Part shown: positions 23,108 through 41,560 of the stretch, one piece after another
Position numbering within the stretch: position 1 is the first letter of the stretch
Layout of the letters: each line of letters opens with the position of its first letter
Assembly: GCA_023408075.1 (NCBI GenBank)
Contig: JAEYKW010000046.1
Span: forward strand, 1-64,000
Source: Bacillota bacterium
GTDB lineage: Bacteria > Bacillota > Clostridia > Christensenellales > SZUA-584
Length of the DNA stretch: 64,000 nucleotides
Direction: 5' to 3'
Notes under the pieces: model-generated
Seen by the model: the letters and a program-made list of their open reading frames with translations, nothing else
What the model was told of the DNA's origin: nothing
The model's database searches: none
Position numbers and translations under genes: made by a program

Positions 23108-24180
23108 CGTTGTTTTCAGGTTTGATCACCCCGCTCATCGCATACGCAATGATTACTCTTTTACATATCATCATTCCGGTGAAAAGAATGAAGGGATATG
23201 TCAAAAATGAAATCACAGGCGAAGTCATGAATTACAGAACCAACGGAAAATTTGTTCTTTTGGCGAGTATTCTCATTTGGTTTCTGCTTGGTTTTTTTGA
23301 TATCGTGCCATACTTATGGTTGTATGAAACCCGATGGCTGGGCCTTATCGGCGCGGTTGTGATCGGATTGGTCTATTCTTTTTACATTGTTCTCAAACAC
23401 CCGTCTACGGGCAAATCTTTCTTTGCTGATTTTTGGTATGGCAGGGTTAAAGACGCGCAGATTAAAGACGGCTTCATTGATGCAAAAATGTGGTTTTACT
23501 TAATCGGCGCGGTGATGCTTCAATTGAACGTGCTTTCTTTTGCGGCATATCATATCATGAATGTCCCGCATATTAACTATGGTTTTCTTCTCGGCTGCGC
23601 CATGCTCACATGGTTTTGCTTTGATTATCTGATATTTGAAAAGATCCATCTTTGGACATACGATTTTATCGCGGAGCGCGTCGGATTCAAATTGGGGTTT
23701 GGCTGTCTTGCGTTCTACCCATATTTCTATTCTGTCTCACTCTGGTTTACTGCGCATCTTCCGAATCCCGGTCATCCCGTATGGCTGACAATACTCTTTG
23801 GCGCGCTTTTCCTCTGCGGCTGGGTGCTGACGCGCGGCGCAAATATGCAAAAGTACTTCTTTAAAATTGCGCCCGACAAGAAATTTCTTTGGATAAAGCC
23901 TGAAGTGCTCAGCGACGGTCACTTAAGCCTGCTGGCCAATGGCTACTGGGGCGCAAGCCGCCACATCAACTATCTTGGCGAGATTATTCAGGCGATCGCC
24001 GTGGCTCTGGCCTCCGGCTACGCCGGGATATGGATGGTGTGGCTGTATCCGGCTTACTATATCGGTCTTATGATTTCGCGCCAGGCCGATGACGACAAGG
24101 TTTGCAGGGCGAAATACGGAGAGCTTTGGGATGAATACACCAGAAAAGTGAAATACAAGATTATTCCATTTATATATTGA
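23104..24180 (+). CDS. ERG4/ERG24-family (sterol reductase / DUF1295-like) integral membrane reductase
   Basis: 358 aa with about 8 TM helices. C-terminal signature NGYWGASRHINYLGEII...LMISRQADDDKVCRAKYGELWDEYTRKV matches the sterol-reductase family signature and NADPH-binding tail. Overlaps the SDR stop by 4 nt. Confidence 0.7.
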   Translation: MTLFSGLITPLIAYAMITLLHIIIPVKRMKGYVKNEITGEVMNYRTNGKFVLLASILIWFLLGFFDIVPYLWLYETRWLGLIGAVVIGLVYSFYIVLKHPSTGKSFFADFWYGRVKDAQIKDGFIDAKMWFYLIGAVMLQLNVLSFAAYHIMNVPHINYGFLLGCAMLTWFCFDYLIFEKIHLWTYDFIAERVGFKLGFGCLAFYPYFYSVSLWFTAHLPNPGHPVWLTILFGALFLCGWVLTRGANMQKYFFKIAPDKKFLWIKPEVLSDGHLSLLANGYWGASRHINYLGEIIQAIAVALASGYAGIWMVWLYPAYYIGLMISRQADDDKVCRAKYGELWDEYTRKVKYKIIPFIY

Positions 24181-24267
24181 GTGCGGGTGGGATAATAACT
24201 GCAGTCGGAGCATAATAAATTAAAACGTTACAAGGTCTATTTCGGTAAAACAAGGAGGCAGGATATC

Positions 24268-24510
24268 ATGGACGAAGAAAAGAAAAAAGAAGAGTATAAG
24301 GTGAGCGGCGAAGACCTGATGGCAAAGATCAAAGCCATCATTCGGGAAGGCAACGCGAGAAAGGTGACGATTAAGGATAAGGATGATAAGGAGATACTCA
24401 GCTTTCCGCTGACCGTCGGCGTGGTGGGTATCGCATTAGCTCCTGTTTTTGCAGCCATTGCAACGATCACGGCGTTGGTTACAGAATGTACAATTGTCGT
24501 TGAACGGTAA
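24268..24510 (+). CDS. DUF4342-like small protein
   Basis: 80 aa, strong RBS AAGGAGG. The KVTIKDKDDKEILSFPLTVGVVGI pattern is typical of DUF4342. Confidence 0.5.
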   Translation: MDEEKKKEEYKVSGEDLMAKIKAIIREGNARKVTIKDKDDKEILSFPLTVGVVGIALAPVFAAIATITALVTECTIVVER

Positions 24511-24544
24511 AAATATCTTCGCAAATCTATATTCATCAACTTTT

Positions 24545-24800
24545 GAGGAATAGGTCGGCTAAGGCTTTCAAGGGAAGTATTGGCTGCCAACCCGAAAGGA
24601 ACTGTTTGGCAGCGCCGAGAGTGGAGCTTAAGGAAAAAGGTCAGGAGTGCTGAGCAAACGTACTGGATGGCGTGAAGGAAACCGCTCTGTTTATTCCGCT
24701 GAACCGCCGTATGAGGGACTGTATGAACGGCGGTGTGAGAGGACGGAGTTAGACACCCATCCCCCTCAATTTCGGTCAGGGTGGTTGGGTTCTTGCAAGT
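24545..24800. ncRNA. Candidate structured RNA element (unclassified) in convergent intergenic region
   Basis: No ORF of 60 aa or more on either strand. Several stable hairpins (GGCTGCCAAacccgaaaggaactgTTTGGCAGC; ACCGCCGttcatacagtccctcatacGGCGGT). I could not assign a known family. Confidence 0.2.
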
Positions 24801-24804
24801 AAAA

Positions 24805-25635
24805 TCATTGCCATGAAATTTGCAAGGGTTCTCGGTCTACCAGTCTCTTGAAAGAATAGACTGGATACCCGGCAAGCAGCGCGCCTGTAACGATTTTGTT
24901 TTTGGAGAGCTTTAATAGCTTAAGCAGTGGCTCGTACTCAGTTGCGGCGCAATACTCGAACAAGCCGGACCAGCAAGTGCCAAGCCCCAACGCTGGAGCA
25001 TAGAGCTGGGCATATGCGAGTGCGAAATGTGTGTTGTCCCGGCCGAGAGCGAAACGGTCCTTATCCGCTGTGGCGATGACTAGGCAGGGCGCATCCCTCA
25101 GAATAGTGTCCTTGCCATTTTTGAGGTAACGGCGGATCGTATTGGAGGTGTTTTTTGACCATGGAGATTTCCCTAAAGCTCCGTGCTTTAAATCTTCCTC
25201 TGCCCAATCCGCTATCACCGCTGCAATCTCTTTTAAAGTAGCCGGATCATCAATAACATGGTAAGAGACTCCTTGTGAATTGCAGGCCGTTGGCGCGAAG
25301 CGGGCAATATCGAGGAGTTCACGGATGATCTCGCGCGGCACATGCTTCTTTTTAAAAGAACGGACGGACCGCCGTGATCGAAGAAAACGAGCCGCCGTAT
25401 CGGCATCCGGTACCGATACGTTTTCAAGCAAGACCTGTTTTTCAAGCGGAGCCAGCTTGTGATCTAATGAGCCGTTTGGACAAACGGCTACGCAATGCCC
25501 GCAGACAATGCAGAGATTATTGACAACCTCCGGACCTTGTTCTCCCAGACCAAGAGTACCCCTGCAGACATTTACGCAAAGTCCGCACTTTGTGCATTTA
25601 TCCTGATTCACCTGAATTAAGTTCTCTGATGTCAT
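24805..25635 (-). CDS. Nitroreductase-family protein with N-terminal 2x[4Fe-4S] ferredoxin domain
   Basis: CTKCGLCVNVC and CIVCGHCVAVCP motifs, then a nitroreductase fold (RRSVRSF, FAPTACNSQ). Confidence 0.8.
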   Translation of the reverse strand: MTSENLIQVNQDKCTKCGLCVNVCRGTLGLGEQGPEVVNNLCIVCGHCVAVCPNGSLDHKLAPLEKQVLLENVSVPDADTAARFLRSRRSVRSFKKKHVPREIIRELLDIARFAPTACNSQGVSYHVIDDPATLKEIAAVIADWAEEDLKHGALGKSPWSKNTSNTIRRYLKNGKDTILRDAPCLVIATADKDRFALGRDNTHFALAYAQLYAPALGLGTCWSGLFEYCAATEYEPLLKLLKLSKNKIVTGALLAGYPVYSFKRLVDREPLQISWQ

Positions 25636-25638
25636 TTT

Positions 25639-26346
25639 TCACTCACCGGCCAACACAATATTCAGGGTTTTGATTTTTCCGTTTTTAAGATTAAAAATAA
25701 AATTGAGCGGAATCGGGCTGCCTTCGAAATTACCCGAAAGCGTGGCGGTGACAACGCTATTGCCGTTTTTTTCCACATAGTCGGTGATTTCGGTCATGAC
25801 CTTTGCGTCCCGGTTCGCCTCAAGGATGTGCCGGCTGATGGCCTCCGGGCCATGATATTCGTTTCCTTCGTCATACAATAGGGCATCTTCTGTAAAGCAA
25901 CCAGCAAGCAGTACACCGTCGTAGACATCAGATGCATGGTAATAGGCGGCGATTGGCGCTGGCAGCGGTACAGCCTTGCTGTTGGAGGAAAGAACATTGC
26001 GCAGGCGTGTGACTTTATCCTGCTCTATCGTAAAGTGAAAATCAAGATAAAGAGGGTCGGGTAGATCACTCTTGTCGTAGTCTCCGTCTGATTTTGCAGT
26101 GACGACAATCTCTGTGGCATCCCGAACGGCATTTGTGATTTCCAGCCTCAAATGGACGCCGAAATAGTCGCGGTCGCTCCATTCTTTGATGGCGGTTTTC
26201 CCGTGATATTCTTTCCCCGCGTCTATAACGACGGCGGTATCGGCAAAAATTGAGAGGAAGGTAACGGGATCGTCCGTATTTATTGCCTGAAAATGTGCCT
26301 CAATCGGTTTAAGTAATGGAAATTTAATGTTTATCATTATATTCAT
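25639..26346 (-). CDS. Tandem NTF2-like/SnoaL-like domain protein
   Basis: Two repeats of about 110 aa with the SnoaL-like pattern. Lies in the operon between the nitroreductase and SDR genes. Confidence 0.45.
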   Translation of the reverse strand: MNIMINIKFPLLKPIEAHFQAINTDDPVTFLSIFADTAVVIDAGKEYHGKTAIKEWSDRDYFGVHLRLEITNAVRDATEIVVTAKSDGDYDKSDLPDPLYLDFHFTIEQDKVTRLRNVLSSNSKAVPLPAPIAAYYHASDVYDGVLLAGCFTEDALLYDEGNEYHGPEAISRHILEANRDAKVMTEITDYVEKNGNSVVTATLSGNFEGSPIPLNFIFNLKNGKIKTLNIVLAGE

Positions 26347-26352
26347 TCTCCT

Positions 26353-27159
26353 TTAAATTGTGCGGACAATGCCGCCGTCAATTGTATGCTCGGCTCCGAC
26401 AATGTAAGAAGCGCGATCGGACACCAGAAAAGCGATGAGTTCCGCTATTTCTTCCGGACGTGCGGTGCGGCCAATCGGGATACCGCCCAGAGAATCCATC
26501 AAAGCCTGCCGGGCATCACTATAGCCGCATCCCCGCTCCTGTGACATCCGCTCGATAAGTCTCTCAGCGGCTTTGGTTTCCGTGAATCCGGGCGCAACGC
26601 TGTTCACGCGGATACCCTTGGGTGCGAGCTCCGTTGCCAGCGCTTTGCTGTAATTTGTAAGCGCAGCCTTGGCTGCTGAATATGCCATGGTATTTTCTCC
26701 CGGGAATCGGCGTTGAATCGAGGTAACATGAACAATCACGCCACGGCCTTGCTCGAGCATCGAAGGCAGTAGACCTCGATCCAGACGGACAGCGGCGAAT
26801 AAATTGGTCTCAAATGTCCGCTGCCAGTCGGCGTCGGTTTGTTTCAGTACGCCACCTGTTGGGGTAGAAGAGCCTCCCACGTTGTTGACGAGAATATCTA
26901 CGCCGCCAAAGCGTTTTAGCAGATACTCCACAACTTTTGTAGTGCCCTCAGGTGTGCTGATATCGGCTTGGATAAATAAATCCGAATTGTTTATTTCGCC
27001 CGGCGCGTGCCGTGCTGTCGTGATGACTGTTGCTCCGGAATGTGCAAGCCGCTTGACCGTCGCCTCGCCTATTCCGCCCCCAGTGCCGCCGGTTACAAGC
27101 ACACGCTGACCTTCCAGTTCCTTGGGATTGATCATGATATGGTTGAAATCTTCCATGAA
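26353..27159 (-). CDS. SDR-family oxidoreductase
   Basis: VLVTGGTGGIGEA, NNVG and YSAAK motifs. Start chosen at MEDFNH after an AAGGAGG RBS. Confidence 0.8.
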   Translation of the reverse strand, partial: FMEDFNHIMINPKELEGQRVLVTGGTGGGIGEATVKRLAHSGATVITTARHAPGEINNSDLFIQADISTPEGTTKVVEYLLKRFGGVDILVNNVGGSSTPTGGVLKQTDADWQRTFETNLFAAVRLDRGLLPSMLEQGRGVIVHVTSIQRRFPGENTMAYSAAKAALTNYSKALATELAPKGIRVNSVAPGFTETKAAERLIERMSQERGCGYSDARQALMDSLGGIPIGRTARPEEIAELIAFLVSDRASYIVGAEHTIDGGIVRTI

Positions 27160-27230
27160 TAGAACCTCCTTTTTCGTATTAGGTTGTTTGCATGTTCCAA
27201 TCATATCAATCATAACCTGACAACACCGGG

Positions 27231-28145
27231 TCAAGTTCTATTTTTATATTTGTTTACCATGTCATTTAATTCGTGCCGGAGCGCGTCGCGTATTTTCTGA
27301 GGGGATAACACCTCTGCATCAGCGCCGAACGAGAGGAGATAGCGGATCAGCCATTTGCTGTCTGGCAAAGAGGCAGTGACGGTGAAAGAACCGTCCTGAT
27401 GTTTAAAAATGCTGTTTTCCTCAAATTCATCGTATACTCGGTATGCACCTTCGGCGCGAATCTTCAGGCATAAATCGACCCGGTTCTGCGTTTCTTGTGC
27501 CTGTCCGCTTCCCGGTAATTCTGACGATTCTCTTTCTGAGAAAGACTCCGATGTCATCAGGATATCCGACATTCGTATGATTTTGAAGATTCTAAATGTA
27601 TTTCTGGCCAAACAGAACGCTTTCAGGTACCAGGCGTTTACCTTGAAGACGAGCTTAACTGGTTCAACTCTCCGGATGCTTTTTTCACCGGATGAGCTAA
27701 AATAATTGAACTCAATAATCCGGCGGCTTAAAATGGCGTCTTTTAAAATGGTAAAATGGCCCATCCTGCTTTCGTCGCTGCCCCAGGGGCTGAAATCCAC
27801 CTCAAGCCAACCGGTTTTGTTTTTATTGAACAAACTGCTCAATTTGGCAAGCACTTGATCCATCTGAGGAGCTTTAGTGACCGACAGGCTTTGCAATGCG
27901 TATAGGATTTCGTTTTGTTCTCTTTCCGAAAGGATGGATTTATCAAGCACGTAATCGTCCAGCAGAGAGATGCCTCCGCCCTTACCTTGGGTTGCATAAA
28001 TCGGCACGCCTGCCGAAGACAGGGTTTCGATATCTCGATAAATGGTTCTTTCAGATACTTCAAAACGCGCTGCCAGCTCTTTGGCGGTTGTGGTTTTTTT
28101 ACGAAGCAAGATATAGATTGTTTCAAACAGCCTGTTAATTTGCAT
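27231..28145 (-). CDS. WYL-domain transcriptional regulator (HTH_11 + WYL)
   Basis: AKELAARFEVSERTIYRDIETLSSAGVPI plus a WYL domain. First gene of the minus-strand operon. Confidence 0.8.
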   Translation of the reverse strand: MQINRLFETIYILLRKKTTTAKELAARFEVSERTIYRDIETLSSAGVPIYATQGKGGGISLLDDYVLDKSILSEREQNEILYALQSLSVTKAPQMDQVLAKLSSLFNKNKTGWLEVDFSPWGSDESRMGHFTILKDAILSRRIIEFNYFSSSGEKSIRRVEPVKLVFKVNAWYLKAFCLARNTFRIFKIIRMSDILMTSESFSERESSELPGSGQAQETQNRVDLCLKIRAEGAYRVYDEFEENSIFKHQDGSFTVTASLPDSKWLIRYLLSFGADAEVLSPQKIRDALRHELNDMVNKYKNRT

Positions 28146-29017: not shown

Positions 29018-29046
29018 TTGACAAATTCGTACTACGTATGTAGTAT
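29018..29046 (+). promoter_or_regulatory. blaI promoter (TTGACA-17-TAGTAT) overlapped by a BlaI/CopY-type operator palindrome
   Basis: TACTACgtatGTAGTA (29030-29045) lies between and over the -35/-10 elements; it is related to TACAnnTGTA cop/bla boxes. Confidence 0.45.
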
Positions 29047-29081: not shown

Positions 29082-29456
29082 ATGATACCCAAAATTTCCG
29101 ACTCTGAGCTGGAAGTCATGCGGTTGCTTTGGCGCGAAGAGCGCCCCTTGTCGTTTGCCGAGATACGCACGGAGCTTGAAAGCAAAACCAAATGGACTAA
29201 ATCCACGATTCAAACACTTGTGGTTCGCTTGCGCGACAAGGGCGCTGTCAGCACACAAACCAACTATGTAACTTTGTACAGTCCCGCCGTCACCGAGCAG
29301 GAATATGTATTGGCAGAGGGTCAATTGTTTCTGGATAAGCTGTTTAAAGGGAACGCGAAAAAGCTTGTCGCGTCATTGTGTGAAAACGGACAGTTAAACG
29401 AAAGCGACATCGACGAATTAAAGCAGTTTTTCAAAATGGAGGACTGTCAAAAATGA
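29082..29456 (+). CDS. blaI: BlaI/MecI/CopY-family transcriptional repressor
   Basis: Winged helix SDSELEVMRLLW...SFAEI...TKSTIQTLVVRLRDKG and a C-terminal dimerisation helix. Confidence 0.85.
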   Translation: MIPKISDSELEVMRLLWREERPLSFAEIRTELESKTKWTKSTIQTLVVRLRDKGAVSTQTNYVTLYSPAVTEQEYVLAEGQLFLDKLFKGNAKKLVASLCENGQLNESDIDELKQFFKMEDCQK

Positions 29457-31333
29457 TCATATCACAATTGAGCGACATTGTTTGCACGATTATGATTATG
29501 TCACTCTCCGGCAGCGCTCTCATACTGCTGTTGTTTGCATTAAAACCGCTCATACGTCATCAATTGCCCAAGTCGGTGCAATATGTCTTGTGGCTCGTTA
29601 CGCTCGCGGCACTGCTCGTTCCGGTATCAAAGCTGATTGCCATACCCGATGCGCCGTCACATATCATAGTTGCACCGATCCAAAACGCCGTAGAACAAAA
29701 CAATATCGCAGGTAAAGAAGCAGCGGATACACTTTCTCAGACGAATACAGTTTCGCAGACAGATAGAACGACAACGAAAAATCCGGGTGTTAAGCCAGCG
29801 ATGCACCCTGTATTCACAGCGGCAACTGTATTGATGATAATCTACATGTTAATCGTATTGGTCGTGCTGTCTTATTACATCGTCAGCTACGTTCGGTTCA
29901 CAAGAAGAGTGCGCCGCCATCGCACCCGGGCGCGCATGGAAGAGCTTTATGAGCATGTCGGGTTATGCGGCGATACGATTGCGCCCCGTCTTTACCGCAG
30001 CGCGCTGACCACAACGCCGATGCTGATCGGGATATTTAAACCCGAGATCATATTGCCCGACCGTGAATATACGGGCGCACAATTTCAGAGTGTATTAAAG
30101 CATGAGCTAACTCATTTGCGCAGACGGGACATCATAGTCAAGTGGCTGTCCGTGTTGGCCCGAGCTGTGCACTGGTTCAATCCGCTCGTATGGCTTGCGT
30201 TGCGCGAAATCGACCGTATCTGTGAATTGTCCTGTGACGAGGCCGTGATACGAACAATGGATCACGCAGGAAAACGGAGTTATGGGGAAACATTGATTTC
30301 CATCGCAGCTGATAACAATGCATCGCGGGCCGTGCTTTCCACAACGATGTGTGAGGAAAAAGAGGTATTGAAAGAGCGGCTGAACCTCATTATGAAATAC
30401 CAAAAGCGGACATGGGTCACGCTCGTTATCTCGACGATTATTATATTCGCAGCTGTTTTCACAGCCTTTGTTATGGGCGCACGGGCGGCTTCTGCTCCTG
30501 GAGATAATATGGCTGGCGCAGTGGCTCCGGCATCCGTGCAGAGTGCTCTTCCATCGGATTCTGCGGCAGCCCAGCCGCATTCTCCCTCTGAAAAAGTTAT
30601 AGAGTTCAAGGATCCGATTGTGGAGAAGGTCATCAGCGCCAAATTGAAAAAGCCAGAAGGCGCGATCACCGAGCAGGACATGCTGAAGATTGAGGATTTT
30701 GAATTCAATGATGTAAGAATGAATATATACAGCGGGAAAATTAAAACGATAGAGGACCTGCGCTGGTGTGTGAATCTTAAGAGTATATTCTTAGCCAGTA
30801 CGGACATAACAGATATTTCCGCGCTATCCGGCATGCGGAATCTCGAATCCGTCTGTATCATGGAAAAGCTTGACGACTTCACTCCGCTGCTTGGCAACAA
30901 GAACCTTACCGAAATCCAACTCACAGGCGCTGCCGACAACTTTTTCAGGGATCTGATGAAAAATTGCAGAATGCTTTCCTCCGTGGGCCTGACTAAGTCA
31001 GACGTCAGCCCTGAAAGCATCCGAATGTTGGCAATGAACTTTAAGTTAACAACTCTTGTTATGAATTTCTGCTATATAAAGGACGTCACTCCTTTCATCG
31101 ACTTCACGGGGCTGGAATACTTGTCGCTTGAAAACAACTATATAAAAGATATCTCGGTGTTTGCGGCGAACCCGGAATTGAGCAAAGCCATCGATCTGAG
31201 CGGCAACCAAATCACCGACTGGAGCCCGCTGGAAGATATGACGTTGCTTAGCCTCAACGTATATGATAATCCGGTAACGAAAAGTCCAGCACTGGATAAA
31301 CTCGAAAAAAAAGGCTGTGAAATTTATAGGTAA
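29453..31333 (+). CDS. BlaR1/MecR1-family M56 metalloprotease signal transducer with C-terminal leucine-rich-repeat sensor domain
   Basis: 4 TM helices, HELTHLRRRD (HExxH) and the M56 core. After a further TM helix there is an internalin-like LRR domain (...LSLENNYIKDISVFAANPELSKAIDLSGNQITDWSPL) instead of a penicillin-binding domain. Overlaps blaI by 4 nt. Confidence 0.8.
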   Translation: MIISQLSDIVCTIMIMSLSGSALILLLFALKPLIRHQLPKSVQYVLWLVTLAALLVPVSKLIAIPDAPSHIIVAPIQNAVEQNNIAGKEAADTLSQTNTVSQTDRTTTKNPGVKPAMHPVFTAATVLMIIYMLIVLVVLSYYIVSYVRFTRRVRRHRTRARMEELYEHVGLCGDTIAPRLYRSALTTTPMLIGIFKPEIILPDREYTGAQFQSVLKHELTHLRRRDIIVKWLSVLARAVHWFNPLVWLALREIDRICELSCDEAVIRTMDHAGKRSYGETLISIAADNNASRAVLSTTMCEEKEVLKERLNLIMKYQKRTWVTLVISTIIIFAAVFTAFVMGARAASAPGDNMAGAVAPASVQSALPSDSAAAQPHSPSEKVIEFKDPIVEKVISAKLKKPEGAITEQDMLKIEDFEFNDVRMNIYSGKIKTIEDLRWCVNLKSIFLASTDITDISALSGMRNLESVCIMEKLDDFTPLLGNKNLTEIQLTGAADNFFRDLMKNCRMLSSVGLTKSDVSPESIRMLAMNFKLTTLVMNFCYIKDVTPFIDFTGLEYLSLENNYIKDISVFAANPELSKAIDLSGNQITDWSPLEDMTLLSLNVYDNPVTKSPALDKLEKKGCEIYR

Positions 31334-31520
31334 GGAACTTTATAGCCCCGCCGTCACCGAGCAGGAATATGTATTGACCGAGGGTCAATTGTTTCTTGAT
31401 AAACTGTTTAAAGGGAACGCGAAAAAGCTTGTCGCGTCGTTGTGCGAAAACGGACAATTAAGCGAAAGTGACATCGACGAATTAAAACAATTTTTCAAAA
31501 TGGAGGACTGTCAAAAATGA
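31317..31520 (+). pseudogene. Truncated blaI copy (C-terminal dimerisation half only) created by tandem duplication
   Basis: The 67-aa ORF is about 90% identical to residues 66-124 of the full BlaI and lacks the DNA-binding domain. Confidence 0.5.
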
Positions 31521-33421
31521 TCATTTCACAATTAAGCGATATCATTTGCACGATTCTCATTATGTCTCTCTCCGGCAGCGCTCTCATACTGTTATTGTTT
31601 GCATTGAAACCGCTCATACGCCATCGTTTGCCCAAATCGGTGCAATATGTCTTGTGGCTTGTCACGCTTGCGGCACTGCTCGTTCCCGTATCAAAGCTGA
31701 TTACCATACCCCAAGCGCCGTCAGATATCATAGTTGCACCGATTCAAAATGCCGTGGAACAAAATAATGTTCTGGTTCAGGAAGAAACAAATATGGTGCC
31801 GCAGACGGACACAAATACAGTGCCGCAGACGGACACAACGACAGCAAAAAGTCCGGCTGTGAAACCGGCGATGAACCCTGTCATAACAGCCACAACCGTA
31901 CTGATGTTGGTCTATATATTAATTGTATTGGTCGTGCTGGCTTATTACATAGCCACCTACGTTCGTTTCACAAGAAGAGTGCGCCGGCACCGCACCCGGG
32001 CGCGTATGGAAGAGCTTTATGAGCATGTCGGGTTATGCGGCGATACGATTGCGCCTCGCCTTTACCGCAGCGCGCTGGCCACAACGCCGATGCTGATTGG
32101 AATTCTTAAACCTGAGATCATATTGCCTGACCGTGAATATACCGACACACAGATGCAGAGTGTATTGAAACATGAGTTAACTCATTTGCGCAGACGGGAC
32201 ATTATTTTTAAATGGCTGTCTATATTCGCCCGCGCTTTGCATTGGTTCAATCCGCTCGTATGGCTTGCGCTGCGCGAAATCGACCGTATCTGTGAATTGT
32301 CCTGTGACGAGGCTGTGATACGGACTCTCGATCAAACGGGAAAACGGATTTACGGGGAAACGTTGATTTCCATCGCATCGGATACGAATGCATCGCGGGC
32401 CGTGCTTTCCACAACGATGTGTGAAGAAAAAGAGGTGTTGAAAGAGCGGCTGAACGTTATTATGAGATACCAAAAGCGCACATGGATCACTCTCGTTGTT
32501 TCGACGGTCATCGTGGTTGCGGCGGTTTGCGCCGTCTGTGTGTTCGGTGCGGGAGCGGCTCCGTCGGCGGCTCCGGGCAATAATAAGGTGGATGCATTAG
32601 CAGCAGTCGCCATACAGAGCCCGTCAGCAACGCCCGTGGCAACGCCGGAATCAGCCTCCTTGCAGAGCGTTTTGCCGTCGGCGGCGCCTGAAGAAGAGGC
32701 GCAGCCAGTATCTTTAGAGAGCCCATCGACGGCACCTGAGGCAGCAATGCAACCGGCACCCGTTCAAAGCTTTTTCGCATCACCTGCGCAAACACCGGAC
32801 CCGGATTATATAAATGAGCTGCGCAAAGATGCCATAGAAGTAAGCACAGAAGAAGAATTTGCTGATGCGCTGAATACTGCCGACGTCGTTGTATTGAAAA
32901 AAGATTTAACGCTAGATGATGAATTTGTGACATTAGAAGATTTAGAAGCGCTGGTTATTGATGAAGGCGTTACACTGACTGTCACGTGTTTGAATCTTCA
33001 TGCGACCTGTGAAATCGTCAACCTTGGAGAAATCATAGTGGCCGATTCCGGTCGATTGATGTTTTTCAGTGAACCGGATTATTCTACGATCGGTAAAATC
33101 AGTGTTATAGGGAAAGACGCCAAAATCTTATACGGTGCAGGCAAAGTCGGTGCTGAAGCAATTGCTTATTATCTGAGCGATGATTCGCTCTTTAATGAGC
33201 TTAGTTTAACCCCGCCTTACAGGGATGGCGAAATTGTTGAGATACTCGTTGACCAAGACATTGAGATAGCCGCCGGTAAAACTCTTTGGATGAATGCTCA
33301 TAGCGTACTGCATGTGGCAGAGGGAGTGACCCTTACCAATAACGGGGCCATACGCTATTATGTCGAACCCATCATCGACGGGAAAATCGATGGAATAGGA
33401 AAAGTCGTCTATGATGATTAA
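31517..33421 (+). CDS. BlaR1-family M56 signal transducer paralog with novel C-terminal extracellular domain ('domain X')
   Basis: The N-terminal 340 aa are about 90% identical to the first BlaR1. After a Pro/Ala/Ser-rich linker there is a 210-aa domain shared with the LysM protein at 33501 (…VIDEGVTLTVT..NLHATCEIVNLGEIIV.DSGR…). Confidence 0.8.
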   Translation: MIISQLSDIICTILIMSLSGSALILLLFALKPLIRHRLPKSVQYVLWLVTLAALLVPVSKLITIPQAPSDIIVAPIQNAVEQNNVLVQEETNMVPQTDTNTVPQTDTTTAKSPAVKPAMNPVITATTVLMLVYILIVLVVLAYYIATYVRFTRRVRRHRTRARMEELYEHVGLCGDTIAPRLYRSALATTPMLIGILKPEIILPDREYTDTQMQSVLKHELTHLRRRDIIFKWLSIFARALHWFNPLVWLALREIDRICELSCDEAVIRTLDQTGKRIYGETLISIASDTNASRAVLSTTMCEEKEVLKERLNVIMRYQKRTWITLVVSTVIVVAAVCAVCVFGAGAAPSAAPGNNKVDALAAVAIQSPSATPVATPESASLQSVLPSAAPEEEAQPVSLESPSTAPEAAMQPAPVQSFFASPAQTPDPDYINELRKDAIEVSTEEEFADALNTADVVVLKKDLTLDDEFVTLEDLEALVIDEGVTLTVTCLNLHATCEIVNLGEIIVADSGRLMFFSEPDYSTIGKISVIGKDAKILYGAGKVGAEAIAYYLSDDSLFNELSLTPPYRDGEIVEILVDQDIEIAAGKTLWMNAHSVLHVAEGVTLTNNGAIRYYVEPIIDGKIDGIGKVVYDD

Positions 33422-33500
33422 GAACCAAAATTAAGATTTATAGCGGATATATAGTAAAACGAATTGTTTAATAACTTAATGCCGATAATAGGAGGATGCC

Positions 33501-34427
33501 ATGAAAAGATATTTCGCTATCACAATTGTCATTATCTTCATCCTGTCCTTGCTGCCGGGTTATGCCAGCGCTGGCACTGCTGAGCCTTCTATAATAACAG
33601 CCCGTGCGACTGCGCCAGATCTTAAACCCGGCCAGATTTCTCAGATGTATGAGGAGTATACCGTCAAGCGCGGAGACAGCCTTTCTTCGATTGGCAGACA
33701 ATTTGGCGTATCATGGCGGGACATCGCGAAACTGAACGATATACATGGCCCGAAGTATACAATTCGACCCGGTCAAATATTAAAAATCCCACAGTCACTA
33801 ACATCATCCCCGTCTTATGTAAAACAGCTGCGCAAAAATGCAGTAAAAGTGAACACAGAAAAAGAATTTGCTAATGCGCTGAAAACAGCCTATGTCATTG
33901 AACTGAAAAAAGATATAACTTTAAGTGAAAATCTTGTTACATTAGACGATATCAATGCGCTGGTTATTGATGAAGGCGTTACGTTGACTGTCACATCTAT
34001 GAATTTTCATGCTACATGTGCAATCGTTAACCTTGGAGAAATCATAGTGAAGGACTCCGGCCGGATGATTTTTCACAGTGAACCGGATTACTCCTGTATC
34101 GGTAAAATCAGTACCAGAGGGAGATTCGCTCAAATTGCCTTCAATTCGGGAAAAATCGGTGCTGATGAAATGACTTATTTCCTGAGCGAAGATTCGCTGT
34201 ACGATTCGCTCAATATTGTCGCAAGTTCCTCCGATGGAAAACCTGTCGAGATATTGGTTGACCATGACATTGTCATCCCTGCCAGTAAAACCCTTTGGAT
34301 AAATTCTGGAAGCGTTTTGCATGTGTCAAAGGGAGTGAAGCTAACCAATAACGGTACCATAAGCTATTTTAACGAACCTATCATTGACGGGAAAATCGTT
34401 GGAATAGGAGAAGTCATTGATAACTAG
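33501..34427 (+). CDS. Secreted LysM-domain protein carrying 'domain X' (shared with BlaR1 paralog 2)
   Basis: Signal peptide and LysM (YTVKRGDSLSSIGRQFGVSWRDIAKLN...ILKIP). The C-terminal 210 aa are about 55-60% identical to the BlaR1b sensor domain. Confidence 0.7.
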   Translation: MKRYFAITIVIIFILSLLPGYASAGTAEPSIITARATAPDLKPGQISQMYEEYTVKRGDSLSSIGRQFGVSWRDIAKLNDIHGPKYTIRPGQILKIPQSLTSSPSYVKQLRKNAVKVNTEKEFANALKTAYVIELKKDITLSENLVTLDDINALVIDEGVTLTVTSMNFHATCAIVNLGEIIVKDSGRMIFHSEPDYSCIGKISTRGRFAQIAFNSGKIGADEMTYFLSEDSLYDSLNIVASSSDGKPVEILVDHDIVIPASKTLWINSGSVLHVSKGVKLTNNGTISYFNEPIIDGKIVGIGEVIDN

Positions 34428-34791
34428 AAACCGTATTTAAGCTTAAGGCTCATCAACTGAATTCAATTATTAACGGATATGCTAAATTTAAAACAGCGGA
34501 ACGCTTCACTTTAGCGGTTATATTTCTGCTCAAGGTTCCCATACTAGTGCTCACATTTATTAACATTGGATGGGATCTTTTACGGTAGCAATTGGGTGTG
34601 GAACGACGTCGTAAAAAACGTCGTTCCGAGCGGGTTCGGTCGGTTTATGCTTTTCAGTTTATATTGACTCCTATCTCAGTGACCCGTCGATTGCGTTGAA
34701 ACCTTAAAGCACGAAGATAATTACGATAGCAATCGTTTAGCAGCTAATGAAACAATTTTTGAAATTCTGAAAAAAACAGCAGGAGGACGCC

Positions 34792-36246
34792 ATGAAAAGA
34801 TTATACACCTTAACAATCGTCATTCTCCTCATACTGACCCTGCTGCCGGGCTATGCCAACGCGGGTGCAGCCGCATTTCCCGAAGCATCCGCGCAAGCGG
34901 CTGCCTTAACACCTCCGGTGCCGATACTGTCACTCGCGCTCGACCAATACTCTGAGCTTTACCGGGAGTACACGGTTAAGCGCGGTGACAGTCTTATCTC
35001 GATAGGCAGACAGTTCAAGGTGCCGTGGAGAGATCTTGCAATACTGAACGGTATAGGGGGACCAAAGTACACGGTTACCAACGGACAAACCCTCAAAATC
35101 CCGCTGCTGCCGAAGCTGCCGGGGACAACCGGCAATTATCTTATTCTTTGCGAAAACGAAGCGCAAAAGCAATGCCTGGCCGAATTCGCAGCATACAAAA
35201 TATTAAACGGATATTCGGTGACGATAAAAAGCGTGGAAGCGGATGTCAAATTGAAAGCCGATGCCGACACCAGCGAAGAGATACGGCAATATCTTAAGAA
35301 GATGGACAAGGTGTTATCGCTGGAATTCGTGTTACTTGTCGGGAGCGCTTACGATGAAGAATCGGCTTGTATTCAGCACACCGGCGGAGCTATTCCGCTG
35401 AGATATATGTACGACAATCCGGCCAATCGTGACTACAGTTGGTACGATGGCAAGAACCATAAAGTATTCAAAACGCCGACAGATATCTATTATGCGTTGG
35501 ATCTAAACTGGGATTTTGACGAGGATGGTTTCGCAGGCGAAAGGAATGAGATGGCCGAAAGCGTTAAGCAAGCAGAGCCCAAGTTGTTGTTCCGGCTTGG
35601 CAGAATCCCATTTTCGGATAGCAAAGATATCAAGAAGGTACTGGATTCAACGATGCAATATGAAATCAGCCAAAAAGCACATTCTGATGCTCTGATCGGC
35701 AGCTATGGGATATGGGCTTACTATAGCGATGCGCTTGCGAATAATTTCTCCAATATGAAGATTAAGGCTGTCTCGCTTTACGGAAATGACGAAAATGGGC
35801 CGTGTCAGTACAAAAGCACCTACCCGTTAAGTATCGATAATTTCTTTAGTGAAATCAATAAGAAGTATGACTTTGTTTATATAATGGGCGATATAAAAAA
35901 ATATTGCGGCAACACGCCTTTAGGGAAACGCGTGCAGGCCGGAATTTACTTCCTCGACGGTACGGCGACAATGCAAGCGGAGCCCGAACCGAAATATTCT
36001 CGATTTAATGCACAGGATTTCCTTGCCGAAGGGTCGGCCTGTACCGTGATTGCCACCACCGAAGAAGTCGGTTTTAACCCGAAAAATCCGGTCCCGCGCA
36101 TAACCAGCAGGTTATTCTCCAATAAAATGCTCAGCATCTCAGGTGAATTCTATGCCGCGGTACTGTCGTCGATCATGGAGGACGATGTGAGGGAAGCCTA
36201 TGTTTACTGCTATCTCGGTGACCCGTCTATCGCCTTAAAACAATAA
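34792..36246 (+). CDS. Secreted LysM-domain protein with C-terminal peptidase-C25 (gingipain)-like domain
   Basis: Signal peptide and LysM paralogous to the 33501 gene. C-terminal region has the C25-type pattern YALDLNWDFDEDGFAGE...PKLLFRLGRIPFS. The catalytic His/Cys are not clearly identifiable. Confidence 0.55.
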   Translation: MKRLYTLTIVILLILTLLPGYANAGAAAFPEASAQAAALTPPVPILSLALDQYSELYREYTVKRGDSLISIGRQFKVPWRDLAILNGIGGPKYTVTNGQTLKIPLLPKLPGTTGNYLILCENEAQKQCLAEFAAYKILNGYSVTIKSVEADVKLKADADTSEEIRQYLKKMDKVLSLEFVLLVGSAYDEESACIQHTGGAIPLRYMYDNPANRDYSWYDGKNHKVFKTPTDIYYALDLNWDFDEDGFAGERNEMAESVKQAEPKLLFRLGRIPFSDSKDIKKVLDSTMQYEISQKAHSDALIGSYGIWAYYSDALANNFSNMKIKAVSLYGNDENGPCQYKSTYPLSIDNFFSEINKKYDFVYIMGDIKKYCGNTPLGKRVQAGIYFLDGTATMQAEPEPKYSRFNAQDFLAEGSACTVIATTEEVGFNPKNPVPRITSRLFSNKMLSISGEFYAAVLSSIMEDDVREAYVYCYLGDPSIALKQ

Positions 36247-36478
36247 TGGGGGTGCTGGGGCTCATTGAATGAGCCAGGAAAGGGGACATGGGAATAAAGG
36301 CCTTCTATAGCAGGATTAACGCCATATGAGGCCTTAATTCCATAAAAAGCGAAGAGAGAAAGTCAGCCGCAGAGCCAGTATTAGCGGAAAAGAGCTGCCT
36401 TCACCAAGCCGGATAGTCGGAGGGATTTGAGCCACAGCTGTTTTTGTGATATATTCGGTATAAAATTTTTATTAAGAT

Positions 36479-37000
36479 TTGGAGTCAAAAATGGATAAGG
36501 CTAAACGAAACAACACGATAACTTTTTCATTATTCATCATTTATATATTGGTATTGATATGGATAGTCCTTTTTAAACTGCACTTTTCTTTTGCAGAAAT
36601 GGACAGGATAAGAACTATCAATCCGATTCCATTTCAGGGCTCCGGCATTGGTGCTAATGAAGTTTATAACATACTTTTTTTCATTCCTTATGGTATTTAT
36701 ATATGTATGTTAAAACGCCAATGGTCTTTTATAAAAAAGGTTATTATCATTCTATGTTTCAGTTTGTCTTTTGAAATCCTTCAATATATTTTTGCAGTCG
36801 GAAGAACGGACATAACGGACTTGCTATGCAATATGCTGGGCGGAATCATTGGTGTTGGTATTTACGGATTGTTATTCAGAATAATAAAATATAAAACCAA
36901 TAACGTCTTGAATATTGTACTTTTGTTATTAACAGTATGTATATTATTGTTTTTCGCTTTGTTAGTTACACACTCGCTGCCGTTTGTTTTTAATCTATAA
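36479..37000 (+). CDS. VanZ-like family membrane protein
   Basis: 4 TM helices. LSFEILQYIFAVGRTDITDLLCNMLGGIIG matches the VanZ pattern. Confidence 0.6.
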   Translation: MESKMDKAKRNNTITFSLFIIYILVLIWIVLFKLHFSFAEMDRIRTINPIPFQGSGIGANEVYNILFFIPYGIYICMLKRQWSFIKKVIIILCFSLSFEILQYIFAVGRTDITDLLCNMLGGIIGVGIYGLLFRIIKYKTNNVLNIVLLLLTVCILLFFALLVTHSLPFVFNL

Positions 37001-37173
37001 ATCTATAGATTGATAACTGTGCTGTTTGGTCGCTCGGTTTGCGAGTTTTAACATTTGCAAAAAGGTATATTATACGACATTTTCCATGGAATTAACTTGT
37101 ACTAACATAACGAATAAACTATAATATCCATATATAACTAAGATAAAAATAGAAAAAAAGGAGTATTGGACCA

Positions 37174-39849
37174 ATGAAAAAGCTTAGTCTCTTTCTCGTG
37201 TTGTTGTTACTCATTTCTATGTTCCCATTACAGGCATTGGCTGCCGATGAAAACAACGACAGCTATAACGATCACGATGTGGCGCAGATAAGCGCATTTT
37301 TGAATCAAACGTCTTCCGGCTTAACCAACGCGGAAATACTCGGTTATGCCGACCCAAATGATCCGGCGATATGGAGCGATGTCTCTTGGGTTTCAGTGGA
37401 TGGTGAACAACGCGTTCAGAGCATCAACTGGGGCTTTAAGGATACCGCAGGAGTGCTGGACCTTTCGGGATGCACGGCCTTGACCGAACTGTATTGTCTC
37501 TCGATCGGGCTGACCTCTCTGGATGTGAGTGGATGCACCGCTTTAAGCACGCTATCATGCGAATTTAATTCGCTGACCAGCCTCGATGTCAGCACCTGCA
37601 GCTCGCTCAGTCAGCTTTCTTGTTATGTTAATGCTATTGAAACATTAAATGTGAGTGGCTGCAGCAATTTGACATGGCTGAATTGTTCTGAAAATAAACT
37701 CACACAGCTCGATGTGAACAGCTGTGCCAATCTTGGCGATCTTGATTGCAGTCATAACAATTTGTCGTCGTTGGATGTGAGCGGCTGCCCTCTGGGATAC
37801 TTATCATGTACTGAAAACCCGCTGAAACAGATTCACGCTGTTATAGAGGGAGAGGATGTCAAACTGAACGCATCAGCAGGATATCTTAAGTTATCTTATT
37901 TGGCTTACGACATCGAAGGTGAGATGTACGTCGATAGATATTCCGCGTCGGCTGTCCCTGACAGCATGCCGTGCTCCGGGTGGACGGGAATGCAGGACGG
38001 GGTGTTATTCTCGTCAGACGATTCCAATATCGATCTTGAAATCGGCTGTTCATACGACATTACCGCGAATTTTGCGAGCGGAACCGTATACAACGACCAT
38101 GACGTCACAAAGATGCAGGTATTCCTCAATAAAGAGCCTTTAGAGGGACCAAATTACATGCAGCTGGGTTATGACGTTGACGACCCGTCCACCTGGAACG
38201 ATGTGACTTGGGTGGCTTCGCCCGAAGGCCTGCGCATATCGGCGGTTGAATGGAACGAAAGACAAGCCGTCGGCGGTACGCTCGATCTTTCCGGCTGCGC
38301 CTATCTTGAGTCTGTCGATTTTTACGGTAACGAGCTTCATGGGCTTAATTTGAACGGCTGTGCCGCGCTTAAGAATGTTTCCTGCAACGATAATTATCTT
38401 GATACGCTGAGTCTAAGCGGATGCGACGAGTTAACAAGCTTAAAGCTCAACAACAACAACGGGCTTCTCATTGCGCTTGAGCTGCAGGGGTATACAAAGC
38501 TTGAGCACCTTGAGTGCGTACAAAGTCTTCTCGATACACTTGATGTTGGCGGCTGCACGGCACTCACATATCTTGATTGCAGCAACACTTATGAGTACAA
38601 TCGCAATTTTATCAACACTCTTGACCTGAGCGACAGCACGGGGCTGACAACGCTGAAATGTGCAGGCAATCCTCTGGCTCGTATAAGCGCGATTATGAAC
38701 GATACTGTGATAGATCTTACCGCCGGAGGGTGGGGATATGTCGCATTATCTGAGGGCGGAGAGACAGCTTATACGGTGCAAGTGCCCGATACTCAACCGT
38801 TTTCAAGCTGGATAGGCACACAGGACGGCTCCCCGTTCTTTTCAGCCGAATCGACAATAAATTTAACGCCCGGCTCCGAATATGTCCTGATGGCGAATTT
38901 CGGTTACGGCGTTTTTTACGACGGCAACGGAGCGACGGGCGGCACAGTACCCGATGGCGGCAGACACAACGCGGGGGATTCCATTGGGGTGCGCAGCAAC
39001 TCGGGCAGCCTTGAGCGAGCGGGTTTTGAATTTGCAGGCTGGAACACGGCGGCTGACGGCAGCGGCACATCATACAGCGAGGACTCATCGATGATGATGC
39101 CCGCAGAGAACATCACGCTGTACGCGGTTTGGGAGCCCATCGCCTATACCATCACCTATGACCTCGACGGAGGTGAGGCACAGAATCCCGCGACTTACAA
39201 TGCTCTGACCCCGGCATTCACGCTGAATAATCCTACGAAACTGGGATATGTGTTTGCGGGCTGGACGGGAACGGACCTTGCGAATGCGGCGATGAGCGTC
39301 AGCTTCCCGGCGGGGTCCATAGGCGACAGGGCTTACACAGCAAACTGGGCGCAGAACACAGTATACACCGTCACATTCGATGCGAAGAACGGGAGCGCGG
39401 TGGACAGCATTGAGGTGAATGCGGGAGGGACAATTGAAACCGCCCCTGTCACGAGCCGGTTCGGTTATAACTTTACCGGCTGGTATACGAAGAAGGGAGT
39501 GCTCATAACGTTCCCATATCATGTAACGGGCAGCGTGACGCTTTATGCGGGGTGGGAGAAGCAGCCAAAGACAGCATACCTTTCGGATGTTGAACTCTCG
39601 TCTGGCACTCTCGATTCAAACTTTTCGAATTCGAAATACCTCTATTTAATAAGGCTGCCCGAGAGTGAGACGAGCTTTACGCTGACCCCGGTTAAAGAGT
39701 ATGATGGCGCTTCGATGTCGATAAACGGGGAATCCACATCGAGTTACACGGTTAACCTTGAAAACCATAGGAATGCGCTGATATGCGTGATCGTGCAAAA
39801 CGGCAAAAGCATAAGGCTGTATACTTTCATCGTGCACAGAGGAAGATGA
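37174..39849 (+). CDS. Large secreted LRR protein with Listeria-Bacteroides repeats and C-terminal cadherin-like beta-sandwich domain
   Basis: Signal peptide and two copies of the cap+LRR module seen in the 14349 gene. Also 3-4 Listeria-Bacteroides (Flg_new) repeats (GY.FAGW..). C-terminal LS.GTLDSNFSNSKYLY...FTLTPV is cadherin-like. Confidence 0.75.
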   Translation: MKKLSLFLVLLLLISMFPLQALAADENNDSYNDHDVAQISAFLNQTSSGLTNAEILGYADPNDPAIWSDVSWVSVDGEQRVQSINWGFKDTAGVLDLSGCTALTELYCLSIGLTSLDVSGCTALSTLSCEFNSLTSLDVSTCSSLSQLSCYVNAIETLNVSGCSNLTWLNCSENKLTQLDVNSCANLGDLDCSHNNLSSLDVSGCPLGYLSCTENPLKQIHAVIEGEDVKLNASAGYLKLSYLAYDIEGEMYVDRYSASAVPDSMPCSGWTGMQDGVLFSSDDSNIDLEIGCSYDITANFASGTVYNDHDVTKMQVFLNKEPLEGPNYMQLGYDVDDPSTWNDVTWVASPEGLRISAVEWNERQAVGGTLDLSGCAYLESVDFYGNELHGLNLNGCAALKNVSCNDNYLDTLSLSGCDELTSLKLNNNNGLLIALELQGYTKLEHLECVQSLLDTLDVGGCTALTYLDCSNTYEYNRNFINTLDLSDSTGLTTLKCAGNPLARISAIMNDTVIDLTAGGWGYVALSEGGETAYTVQVPDTQPFSSWIGTQDGSPFFSAESTINLTPGSEYVLMANFGYGVFYDGNGATGGTVPDGGRHNAGDSIGVRSNSGSLERAGFEFAGWNTAADGSGTSYSEDSSMMMPAENITLYAVWEPIAYTITYDLDGGEAQNPATYNALTPAFTLNNPTKLGYVFAGWTGTDLANAAMSVSFPAGSIGDRAYTANWAQNTVYTVTFDAKNGSAVDSIEVNAGGTIETAPVTSRFGYNFTGWYTKKGVLITFPYHVTGSVTLYAGWEKQPKTAYLSDVELSSGTLDSNFSNSKYLYLIRLPESETSFTLTPVKEYDGASMSINGESTSSYTVNLENHRNALICVIVQNGKSIRLYTFIVHRGR

Positions 39850-40193
39850 AAAGGATGATAGCCGATAGAGCCATAAATCGGAGATAACGTATATTGAAGC
39901 CTGTAAAATGGTTTTTAGAAAGCGGTTCGCAACGCTGTCAAGAAAAACGAACAGGAAAAAAGTTGACTGGCTCTCGCACTCTACGGGAGTCAGTTTTTAT
40001 TCTCCGATTGTTTCTCGATATTATTTTTAAGGAATTGAATTCCCCGTCACTTTGTTCGTAAACAGTAATTTTCTCTGTCATTGCGGGAAGCCTTTTCTAT
40101 GTCAAAATGATTTTGGCGCAGTGACGTTCGGTAAAGATACAACCAAAGATCAACAAACCGGTTTAGTATAGAATAAGAGTATAAAAAGCCCTC

Positions 40194-41153: not shown

Positions 41154-41560
41154 AAGAGCACCTCCTGATCTCATCATACAATCTTAAGTAAAAAATGCAA
41201 TATTATTGTATGTCGGGAACAAGGAAAAGGATACTCCTTTCCGATTTTCAGCCTTAAATCATGATAACACAGTATATGACTGAATAAGCACGCTGAAGGA
41301 TATCGTGCGGAGAATGGCTCACTGGCTGGGATTTATATCATGTCTTTGGCCTTTGGCGCTGGAGCCTTGAATACTGTTGAAGGAACAGCGCTCCTTGTCG
41401 CGGATAAATTTGCATTATAGTCGCATTTGCAATATACTTTTCAAATAACCAACTTTTAGCTCGCCAGATTCCCTTTACACAGTGAAGAACTCTATACTGC
41501 ATCAGGTTTAAAGCATAAAAATATCAAGCATTAAAACAAGAAGCTAAGAAAGGGTTTTGT

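Follow-up and report, generated by a model that had tools for sequence, protein, structure and literature searches.

A BlaI-family repressor gene, two M56 sensor-protease genes and an intervening repressor fragment in a Bacillota metagenome contig

We analysed a 64,000-nt stretch of DNA from a Bacillota bacterium (contig JAEYKW010000046.1; hereafter "the window") that contains blaI, a repressor gene of the BlaI/MecI/CopY family, two genes for M56 zinc-protease transducers, which we call R1a and R1b, and, between these two, a 67-codon open reading frame (ORF) corresponding to the 3ʹ half of blaI. The reading that we favor, with moderate confidence, is that the array is one BlaI-repressed operon with two M56 sensors, and that the 67-codon ORF is a recent relic of a second blaI. 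The array would derive from two paralogous blaI-M56 operons, one encoding a sensor with a leucine-rich repeat (LRR) ectodomain and the other a sensor with an ectodomain that we call X, which now lie head to tail. The second operon would have lost its promoter and the first 64 codons of its repressor gene (blaIʹ). With this loss, the R1a stop codon would have come to abut blaIʹ codon 65, and R1b would have come under the control of the sole upstream promoter and operator. The 67-codon ORF would be what remains of blaIʹ, and would also supply the ribosome-binding site for R1b.

The array contains a direct repeat of ~1.2 kb. Copy A (29270..30516, plus strand) covers blaI codons ~64-124 and R1a codons 1-~354, which encode the M56 domain, the fourth transmembrane segment (TM4) and the start of a linker rich in Pro, Ser and Thr (PST linker). 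Copy B (31336..32591, plus strand) covers blaIʹ codons 65-124 and R1b codons 1-~358. Local alignment gives 1072 identical positions in 1243 aligned columns (86.2%), with 74% to 94% identity per 100-nt window, and an independent repeat scan recovers the same pair (D1, 91%; D2, 86%). The offset between the copies drifts from 2064 to 2075 across seven small indels of 2, 1, 1, 6, 3, 3 and 1 nt. An earlier note on this DNA had described two diverged direct copies of a blaI 3ʹ half plus M56 module, and both the alignment and the repeat scan bear this out. The note was right that identity is high but slightly overstated it at ~90%; its offset of 2061 lies a little outside the range measured here; and the ends that it gave, 30480 and 32545, are close, although the repeat reaches ~40 nt further 3ʹ (30516/32591). 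The two copies are in direct orientation with a clean junction. Since ~820 bp of LRR-coding DNA unique to copy A lies between them, they are not contiguous tandem units. In the second unit, the 3ʹ part consists of an X-domain gene of older, orthologous origin. We propose that the repeat represents a conserved chassis, composed of the blaI 3ʹ half, the M56 protease, TM4 and the PST linker, that evolves with the genome and not with the sensor type, by gene conversion or by recombination between alleles.

The window derives from a metagenome assembly, in which its contig is 96 kb long, and operons with blaI and an LRR-type M56 gene (a-type) or with blaI and an X-type M56 gene (b-type) are alternative occupants of one locus in different genomes. 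An assembler might conceivably have misjoined strain alleles of the two types, or mis-expanded a repeat. We consider an artefact of this kind, which the earlier note had itself proposed as a refutation, to be very improbable. The junction between the R1a stop codon and blaI codon 65 (31325-31350; …TATAGGTAAGG|AACTTTATAGCCCC…) shares no k-mer with sequence elsewhere by which an assembler could be misled. The copies, at 14% divergence, have no exact run in common that is longer than 50 nt. Furthermore, window positions 32395-42427 (10,033 bp) recur with 100% identity in L015, an independent Logan assembly. Its break falls precisely within a 38-nt run that the two copies share, where a graph with k=31 is expected to branch if the reads hold both copies. 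Lastly, a different genome from another study (L001) has the same tandem layout.

The first gene of the array, blaI (29082..29456, plus strand), encodes a 124-aa protein that matches PF03965 (E 5.5e-27, profile positions 1-112) and aligns end to end with the crystal-structure sequences of MecI and BlaI. Its winged helix-turn-helix (wHTH) aligns over residues 2-77 with the 82-aa structure of the BlaI DNA-binding domain, 1p6r. The Staphylococcus aureus cleavage site, N101-F102, corresponds in the alignment to S98-L99, a putative cleavage site of the blaI product. The blaI stop codon overlaps the ATG of R1a (ATGA). R1a (29453..31333, plus strand) encodes a 626-aa M56 zinc-protease transducer (PF05569, E 7e-56, residues 13-313) with LRR_4/LRR_8 matches in its C-terminal ectodomain (residues 531-587, Pfam), and R1b (31517..33421, plus strand) encodes a 634-aa M56 zinc-protease transducer (PF05569, E 1e-55) with the C-terminal X ectodomain. 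The HEXXH motif (HELTH) is present in all M56 copies, and R1a and R1b also keep the downstream acidic motif. The ratio of non-synonymous to synonymous substitution rates (dN/dS) between R1a and R1b is 0.18 for the whole M56 domain and 0.16 without a fast-evolving loop, indicating purifying selection. Hence, both M56 ORFs are intact, as the earlier note had said, and constrained. The loop itself, which is cytoplasmic, is the fastest-evolving part of the repeat (synonymous divergence, dS, 1.1). In R1b it contains a 24-nt internal direct repeat (31796-31836; peptide VPQTDTNTVPQTDTTT), seen in the scan as two identical 17-nt hairpin-like strings, that explains some of the indel difference relative to copy A.

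The best promoter score between positions 28400 and 36600 belongs to a promoter-like sequence just upstream of blaI (TTGACA-17-TAGTAT, 29018..29046, plus strand). Between its -35 and -10 hexamers is a palindrome with perfect arms (TACTAC-GTAT-GTAGTA, 29030-29045; TACTACGTATGTAGTA), the likely BlaI operator. The palindrome is unique within the 64-kb window, in which we found no further operators. There is no other promoter or operator between the array genes, and the run from blaI through R1a and the fragment to R1b is not interrupted by any convincing promoter or terminator.

Neither R1a nor R1b has a penicillin-binding (class D β-lactamase-like) sensor domain, as judged by Pfam and, for X, by structure prediction and Foldseek. 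R1b residues ~420-634 have no Pfam match. The X domain (32777..33418, plus strand) is modelled by AlphaFold2 (AF2) with a mean pLDDT of 88 and a pTM of 0.83, and consists almost entirely of short β strands. A Foldseek search of the PDB gave no match to X with E<0.1; the best weak matches (E 0.1-1) are to pectate lyases and other parallel β-helices. We therefore describe X as a predicted β-solenoid-like fold. Since neither gene has a β-lactam-sensing domain, the name blaR1 used in the earlier note does not fit: R1a and R1b are M56-family transducers and not BlaR1 in the strict sense, and these systems almost certainly do not sense β-lactams. We caution against the label "blaR1" for M56 genes of this kind.

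The 67-codon ORF (31317..31520, plus strand) starts with GTG and matches PF03965 over profile positions 60-113 of 115 (E 3.6e-9). It consists of seven codons from the 3ʹ end of R1a, read out of frame, followed by the 60 codons for BlaI residues 65-124. The GTG lies 14 nt before the R1a stop codon (31331-33), giving an overlap of 17 nt, and the TGA of the ORF overlaps the ATG of R1b, in the same way that the end of blaI overlaps R1a. A GGAGG Shine-Dalgarno (SD) sequence for R1b lies inside the 3ʹ end of the ORF. The encoded fragment holds the last strand of the wing, the whole dimerization domain and the equivalent of the cleavage site, and lacks helices 1-3 of the wHTH; like BlaI itself, it aligns through MecI/BlaI residues ~65-120, the dimerization domain. 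Our ORF map and the Pfam matches thus agree with the earlier note that this is an intact 67-aa ORF with a BlaI dimerization domain and no DNA-binding domain, and that its start overlaps the end of R1a. The sole SD-like sequence for the GTG is AAGG, 2 nt upstream, which is a poor SD. The ORF is on record from no gene caller, and the fragment, BlaI and R1a have no exact match in the contig index. A literature search for truncated BlaI as a dominant negative returned nothing relevant ("BlaI" also matches a restriction enzyme).

The substitutions in the fragment are heavily skewed towards synonymous changes. Thirteen codons differ from blaI codons 65-124, 11 of them synonymously and 2 with an amino-acid change (dS 0.49, dN 0.021, dN/dS 0.04). 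When the changes are polarized with five outgroup blaI genes, the fragment branch has ~6 synonymous changes and 1 non-synonymous change (A78T), and the blaI branch has 7 and 1 (S106N). The low dN/dS implies that the fragment is either selected or was cut off only recently. We also considered whether a hairpin at 31373-31389, which the only amino-acid change of the fragment completes, might act as an attenuator, and rejected this (-6.6 kcal/mol, z -1.0). A search for blaI 5ʹ remnants in the 3ʹ end of R1a in the window gave a best local score of 24, against a shuffle maximum of 23, i.e., a chance match.

We recovered nine related loci, each of them from a metagenome assembly of unclassified Bacillota (3 + 2 came from the scans of genomes and metagenomes; L004 is the same sequence as L010, and L007/L008 and L012/L013 are grouped). 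Single a-type operons are found in L005, L007/L008 and L010, and single b-type operons in L002, L003, L011, L012/L013 and L014. The closest database match to the M56 sequences of the window is 77% identical, and we found no nearer relative. An adh_short and ERG4_ERG24 gene pair is shared upstream by the window, L007, L010 and L011 (83-89% aa identity), and genes for a LysM protein with a C25 peptidase domain (LysM-C25) and for VanZ are common to the window, L002 and L011 downstream. Judged from gene order, a-type and b-type sensors are alternative occupants of one chromosomal neighborhood. No single-operon relative has a blaI fragment like that of the window. The earlier note had looked to orthologous loci for the state before duplication. 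Such relatives do exist, but in them both architectures are already present as single blaI-M56 operons at the syntenic locus.

One genome, L001, shares the layout of the window: blaI is followed by an M56-LRR gene (731 aa), a 200-bp spacer, an M56-X gene and a gene for a secreted LysM protein with an X-domain copy (LysM-X). This is the tandem arrangement of the window. The L001 spacer contains blaI nt 10-58 (score 57; highest score among 300 shuffles, 28) and blaI nt 297-368, with ~238 nt absent between the two pieces. It also carries a 1-nt insertion and deletions of 7 nt and 1 nt, making it a frameshifted pseudogene. R1b of L001 keeps its own GGAGG SD. The presence of both 5ʹ and 3ʹ pieces of blaI in the spacer indicates that a whole second blaI once lay between the sensors and has since decayed. 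An intact fragment ORF was found in no relative of the same architecture, since L001, the sole other tandem, carries this decayed remnant.

The M56 sequences group by genome and not by sensor type. In a bootstrapped neighbor-joining tree (310 columns), the a and b copies of the window pair with 87% bootstrap support and those of L001 with 100%, and the LRR-type and X-type genes of other genomes are interspersed. Of the nucleotide sites that are informative for the four tandem copies, 61 support pairing by genome, 13 pairing by type and 9 a crosswise pairing; the "type" signal is confined to columns beyond ~900, the start of the ectodomain linkers. Synonymous distances form a mosaic. The dS between the a and b M56 domains is 0.415 in the window and 0.406 in L001, against 0.58 between the two b copies and 0.88 between the two a copies of these genomes. 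Between the window and L001, dS is 0.37 for the X domain, 0.37 for LysM-X and 0.79 for blaI. Identity between the LRR domains of the window and L001 is only 39%, whereas the LRR domain of the window is 56-63% identical to those of L005, L007 and L010 and to a free LRR protein in L003. Sliding-window differences at third positions were too noisy, and we called no conversion tracts.

The 3ʹ end of the repeat falls in the PST-rich linker (…xQSVLPSAAP…) that follows TM4 in both M56 types. Linker sites are at 30470-30560 and 32545-32640 in the window, 9879-10140 in L003 and 8739-8900 in L010, and the same conserved linker, rich in Pro, Ser, Thr and Ala, is found after the signal peptide in free-standing LRR lipoproteins. 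It is plausible that the PST linker is a recombination handle through which M56 anchors and secreted carriers exchange ectodomain cassettes.

How did the two sensors come to lie side by side? The tandem duplication proposed in the earlier note can be put as a model in which a single in-genome event of ~1.2-2.1 kb made both the fragment and a new M56 gene, with the sensor domain acquired later and the copies diverging in place. The direct orientation of the copies, the similar dS of their blaI part (0.49) and M56 part (0.42-0.52), which fits one event, and the fact that the M56 copies of the window are each other's closest among the sampled sequences are all consistent with this model. Nonetheless, we regard it as improbable. 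Single-copy M56-X genes with the same linker junction are widespread (L002, L003, L011, L012 and L014), and M56-LRR is likewise single-copy in L005, L007 and L010. Hence, contrary to the claim of the note, the duplication did not create a second sensor gene with a different ectodomain. For both the R1b X domain and LysM-X, the L001 counterparts are orthologues, and the dS of 0.37 is below the a/b dS of the M56 domains, implying that the R1b fusion predates the coalescence of the M56 sequences. Moreover, in L001 the region between the sensors once held a complete blaI with its 5ʹ end. Finally, ~25-35 neutral amino-acid changes would be expected since a truncation as old as this model requires, and 2 are seen.

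Two other histories fit the data. An ancestral pair of operons could have had its chassis homogenized by gene conversion in each lineage. Alternatively, a-type and b-type alleles from fairly close relatives could have been juxtaposed independently, by one illegitimate join. Under both histories, the 14% divergence is the age of the two chassis lineages and not of the junction. The earlier note was correct that the divergence is not recent, since a dS of 0.4-0.5 is old. However, this divergence does not date the junction, because it may have built up in a different genome, or at a time when the second blaI was a complete gene.

Is the 67-codon ORF a relic or a gene? We propose that the fragment looks pristine because the cut was recent relative to the divergence, which arose while the gene was still whole. 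The relic reading is favored by the pseudogene in L001, the lack of a fragment in single-operon relatives, the poor SD of the GTG start and the accidental origin of the first 7 codons. Furthermore, under juxtaposition the truncation is the join event itself, and can be arbitrarily recent. Several observations weigh against this reading. The substitution pattern of the fragment is, on the sequence comparison, the signature of a translated and constrained sequence, whereas a neutral remnant would be expected to have gained ~25-35 amino-acid changes over the fragment branch, and probably an indel. The relic reading thus needs the truncation to fall in approximately the last tenth of that branch, or a recent juxtaposition of operons that had already diverged. 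In addition, the overlap between the fragment stop and the R1b start could permit translation by coupling, and short ORFs with only the BlaI C-terminal domain appear to recur elsewhere in metagenomes. As for the order of events, the two histories described above both fit, and nine metagenome loci do not separate them.

The rival to a relic is a selected micro-protein that consists of the BlaI dimerization domain, and that either forms one-armed heterodimers with BlaI that bind the operator poorly, a dominant-negative effect giving positive feedback, or serves as a decoy substrate for the M56 proteases. A dominant-negative role, which the earlier note had suggested, is plausible. We nevertheless consider a selected micro-protein unlikely. 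In its favor are the intact ORF, the dN/dS of 0.04 at a dS of 0.49 and the ~6:1 ratio of synonymous to non-synonymous changes on the fragment's own branch, but this signal of constraint is explained equally well if the sequence formerly belonged to a whole gene. The fragment has a complete dimerization domain and the cleavage-site equivalent without wHTH helices 1-3, and its position inside the operon, with overlaps at the R1a stop and the R1b start, would allow translational coupling; against this, the GTG start is preceded by no more than AAGG, 2 nt away, and the first 7 codons are of accidental origin. Approximately a quarter of the library matches to the fragment are short proteins (~33 of 134 are shorter than 95 aa), and some of these have unrelated N-termini (P0001, P0132, P0134 and P0139), but many of the short matches are contig-edge partials. 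A word-indexed homologue search with the 67-aa fragment found one protein, which is from the scrambled and apparently dead locus L010 (= L004). The blaI break in that locus is only 6 nt from that in the window and leaves a 78-aa C-terminal ORF, but the L010 system looks dead, with the ORF as a by-product. The fragment is absent from single-operon relatives; in L001, the counterpart is frameshifted and internally deleted, and R1b uses its own SD.

Some of these short proteins merit description in their own right. At L010 6140-6800 (= L004 150-800), blaI is split between codons 62 and 63, and its 3ʹ half is a plus-strand ORF of 78 aa, P0001. This is followed by an inverted, frameshifted blaI 5ʹ half with its promoter, an M56-LRR gene without its first 30 codons (TM1), and three tandem paralogues for LRR lipoproteins. 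The chance that two independent random breaks in a 375-nt gene fall as close as those of L010 and the window is ~3-4%. The predicted protein P0132 (82 aa) has a lipoprotein-type signal peptide (…LALVFTMPAFGC) joined to a BlaI C-terminal dimerization domain. A small family of putative short proteins with the C-terminal domain only is made up of P0134 and P0139, P0134 being on a 626-bp contig.

How would the array work? By analogy with BlaI/BlaR1, BlaI dimers would bind the palindrome at 29030-29045 and repress the single promoter. Engagement of either ectodomain by an extracellular ligand, presumably not a β-lactam, would activate the cytoplasmic zinc protease, and the activated sensor would cleave BlaI in its dimerization domain at approximately S98-L99, again as in BlaI/BlaR1. 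Cleavage would derepress the array, and probably the downstream LysM genes as well, making the system an OR gate. By losing the 5ʹ half of the second repressor gene, the locus would have brought two regulons together as a single OR-gated operon. Any fragment that is made would appear only after induction, when BlaI is cleaved, and could then either poison new BlaI dimers, giving positive feedback, or compete as a substrate, giving damping. In a broader version of the micro-protein proposal, which we likewise judge doubtful, the fragment would be a natural anti-repressor derived from the repressor's own gene, turning a two-sensor switch into a latch or a pulse generator, in a clade that shuffles LRR and X ectodomains between M56 anchors and secreted LysM or lipoprotein carriers through the PST-linker "handle".

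What would these readings mean? If the ORF is a relic, then a conserved repressor/M56 chassis is reused with interchangeable ectodomains, diversifying one-component proteolytic switches, and two operons have merged under one operator to give an OR-gated dual sensor. The case would be ordinary but instructive, showing also that a rearrangement is not dated by how far its repeat copies have diverged. A functional fragment, by contrast, would give the BlaI family a natural anti-repressor derived from the repressor itself.

The genes downstream of R1b have a duplication history of their own. LysM-X (33501..34427, plus strand) encodes a secreted protein composed of a signal peptide, a LysM domain (E 4e-16) and a copy of the X domain that is 62% identical at the amino-acid level to that of R1b. 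Next is the gene for LysM-C25 (34792..36246, plus strand; Pfam), which is syntenic in L002 and L011 and is the conserved downstream neighbor of the b-type operon; it is followed by VanZ and then by a large LRR/Flg_new surface protein. Two further repeats are present in this region: D3 (32791-33090 and 33800-34099, 79% identical) and D4 (33490-33574 and 34781-34865, 80% identical). LysM-X is a chimera produced by a second, nested tandem duplication that ran from the X domain of R1b through the signal peptide and LysM domain of the next gene. L002, where R1b is directly followed by LysM-C25 with no LysM-X, has the pre-duplication state, and L001 also has the LysM-X chimera (83% aa identity). The 365-bp gap between LysM-X and LysM-C25 contains a perfect 9-bp stem (GGAACGACG…CGTCGTTCC, 34595-34630) that lacks a clear T tract and may mark the end of the operon. 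Upstream of the array, the adh_short and ERG4_ERG24 pair (window 22319-28145; L007 2830-6168; L010 4277-6135) lies near blaI in the relatives; in the window, the pair is separated from blaI by an insertion of four minus-strand genes (nitroreductase/ferredoxin, SnoaL-like, SDR and WYL regulator) and a 108-aa ORF.

Truncated proteins that poison an oligomer are known, for example the Tn5 inhibitor protein and laboratory-made C-terminal fragments of lambda cI. Like these dominant-negative repressors, the fragment, judging by its sequence, keeps an oligomerization domain and lacks the DNA-binding domain. It differs in being a predicted product whose L001 counterpart is a pseudogene. An anti-repressor of the mec system, MecR2, has been described, and is a protein unrelated to the fragment; the induction kinetics of BlaI-family systems, and the extra factors long postulated for them (MecR2/BlaR2), are still debated.

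In the BlaI/BlaR1 and MecI/MecR1 systems of S. aureus and Bacillus licheniformis, a repressor is paired with a membrane M56 sensor-protease that has a class-D β-lactamase-like sensor (PMC7593790). The array resembles them in its PF03965 repressor with a wHTH and a C-terminal dimerization domain, in the overlap of the repressor stop with the start of an M56 gene that has HEXXH and a TM4 before the ectodomain, and in a palindromic putative operator that overlaps the promoter. It differs in that the ectodomains are LRR and predicted β-solenoid-like with no class-D/PBP sensor domain; in that the neighbors are LysM proteins, a C25 peptidase and VanZ, with no β-lactamase or PBP2a gene; and in that the repressor gene precedes the sensor gene and two sensors lie behind one repressor. 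Atypical BlaIR-type systems, namely BlaIR of Mycobacterium tuberculosis and Mycobacterium abscessus and PvmSR of Pseudomonas aeruginosa (bioRxiv 10.64898/2026.08.03.742534), likewise combine an M56 protease with a BlaI-family regulator, have no penicillin-binding sensor and presumably respond to a signal other than β-lactams. Those systems have no ectodomain, whereas the sensors of the array have large ectodomains and are paired, with a repressor remnant between them.

A further comparison is with the single M56-LRR and M56-X operons of L002, L003, L005, L007, L011, L012 and L014, which have the same genes, the same blaI-M56 overlap, the same PST linker and often the same neighborhood. Many database entries annotated "M56 family metallopeptidase" or "leucine-rich repeat domain-containing protein", from metagenome-assembled genomes of Oscillospiraceae and Defluviitaleaceae, belong to the same group. 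The single operons have one sensor and no blaI fragment, whereas the window and L001 have both sensor types in tandem. Taken singly, the components of the array belong to familiar classes, from the BlaI-family repressor and the M56 transducers with non-PBP ectodomains to gene duplication, conversion and a gene remnant. The dual-sensor arrangement with a self-derived repressor fragment is a variant of these systems, and its dual-sensor layout is found in two genomes, those of the window and L001.

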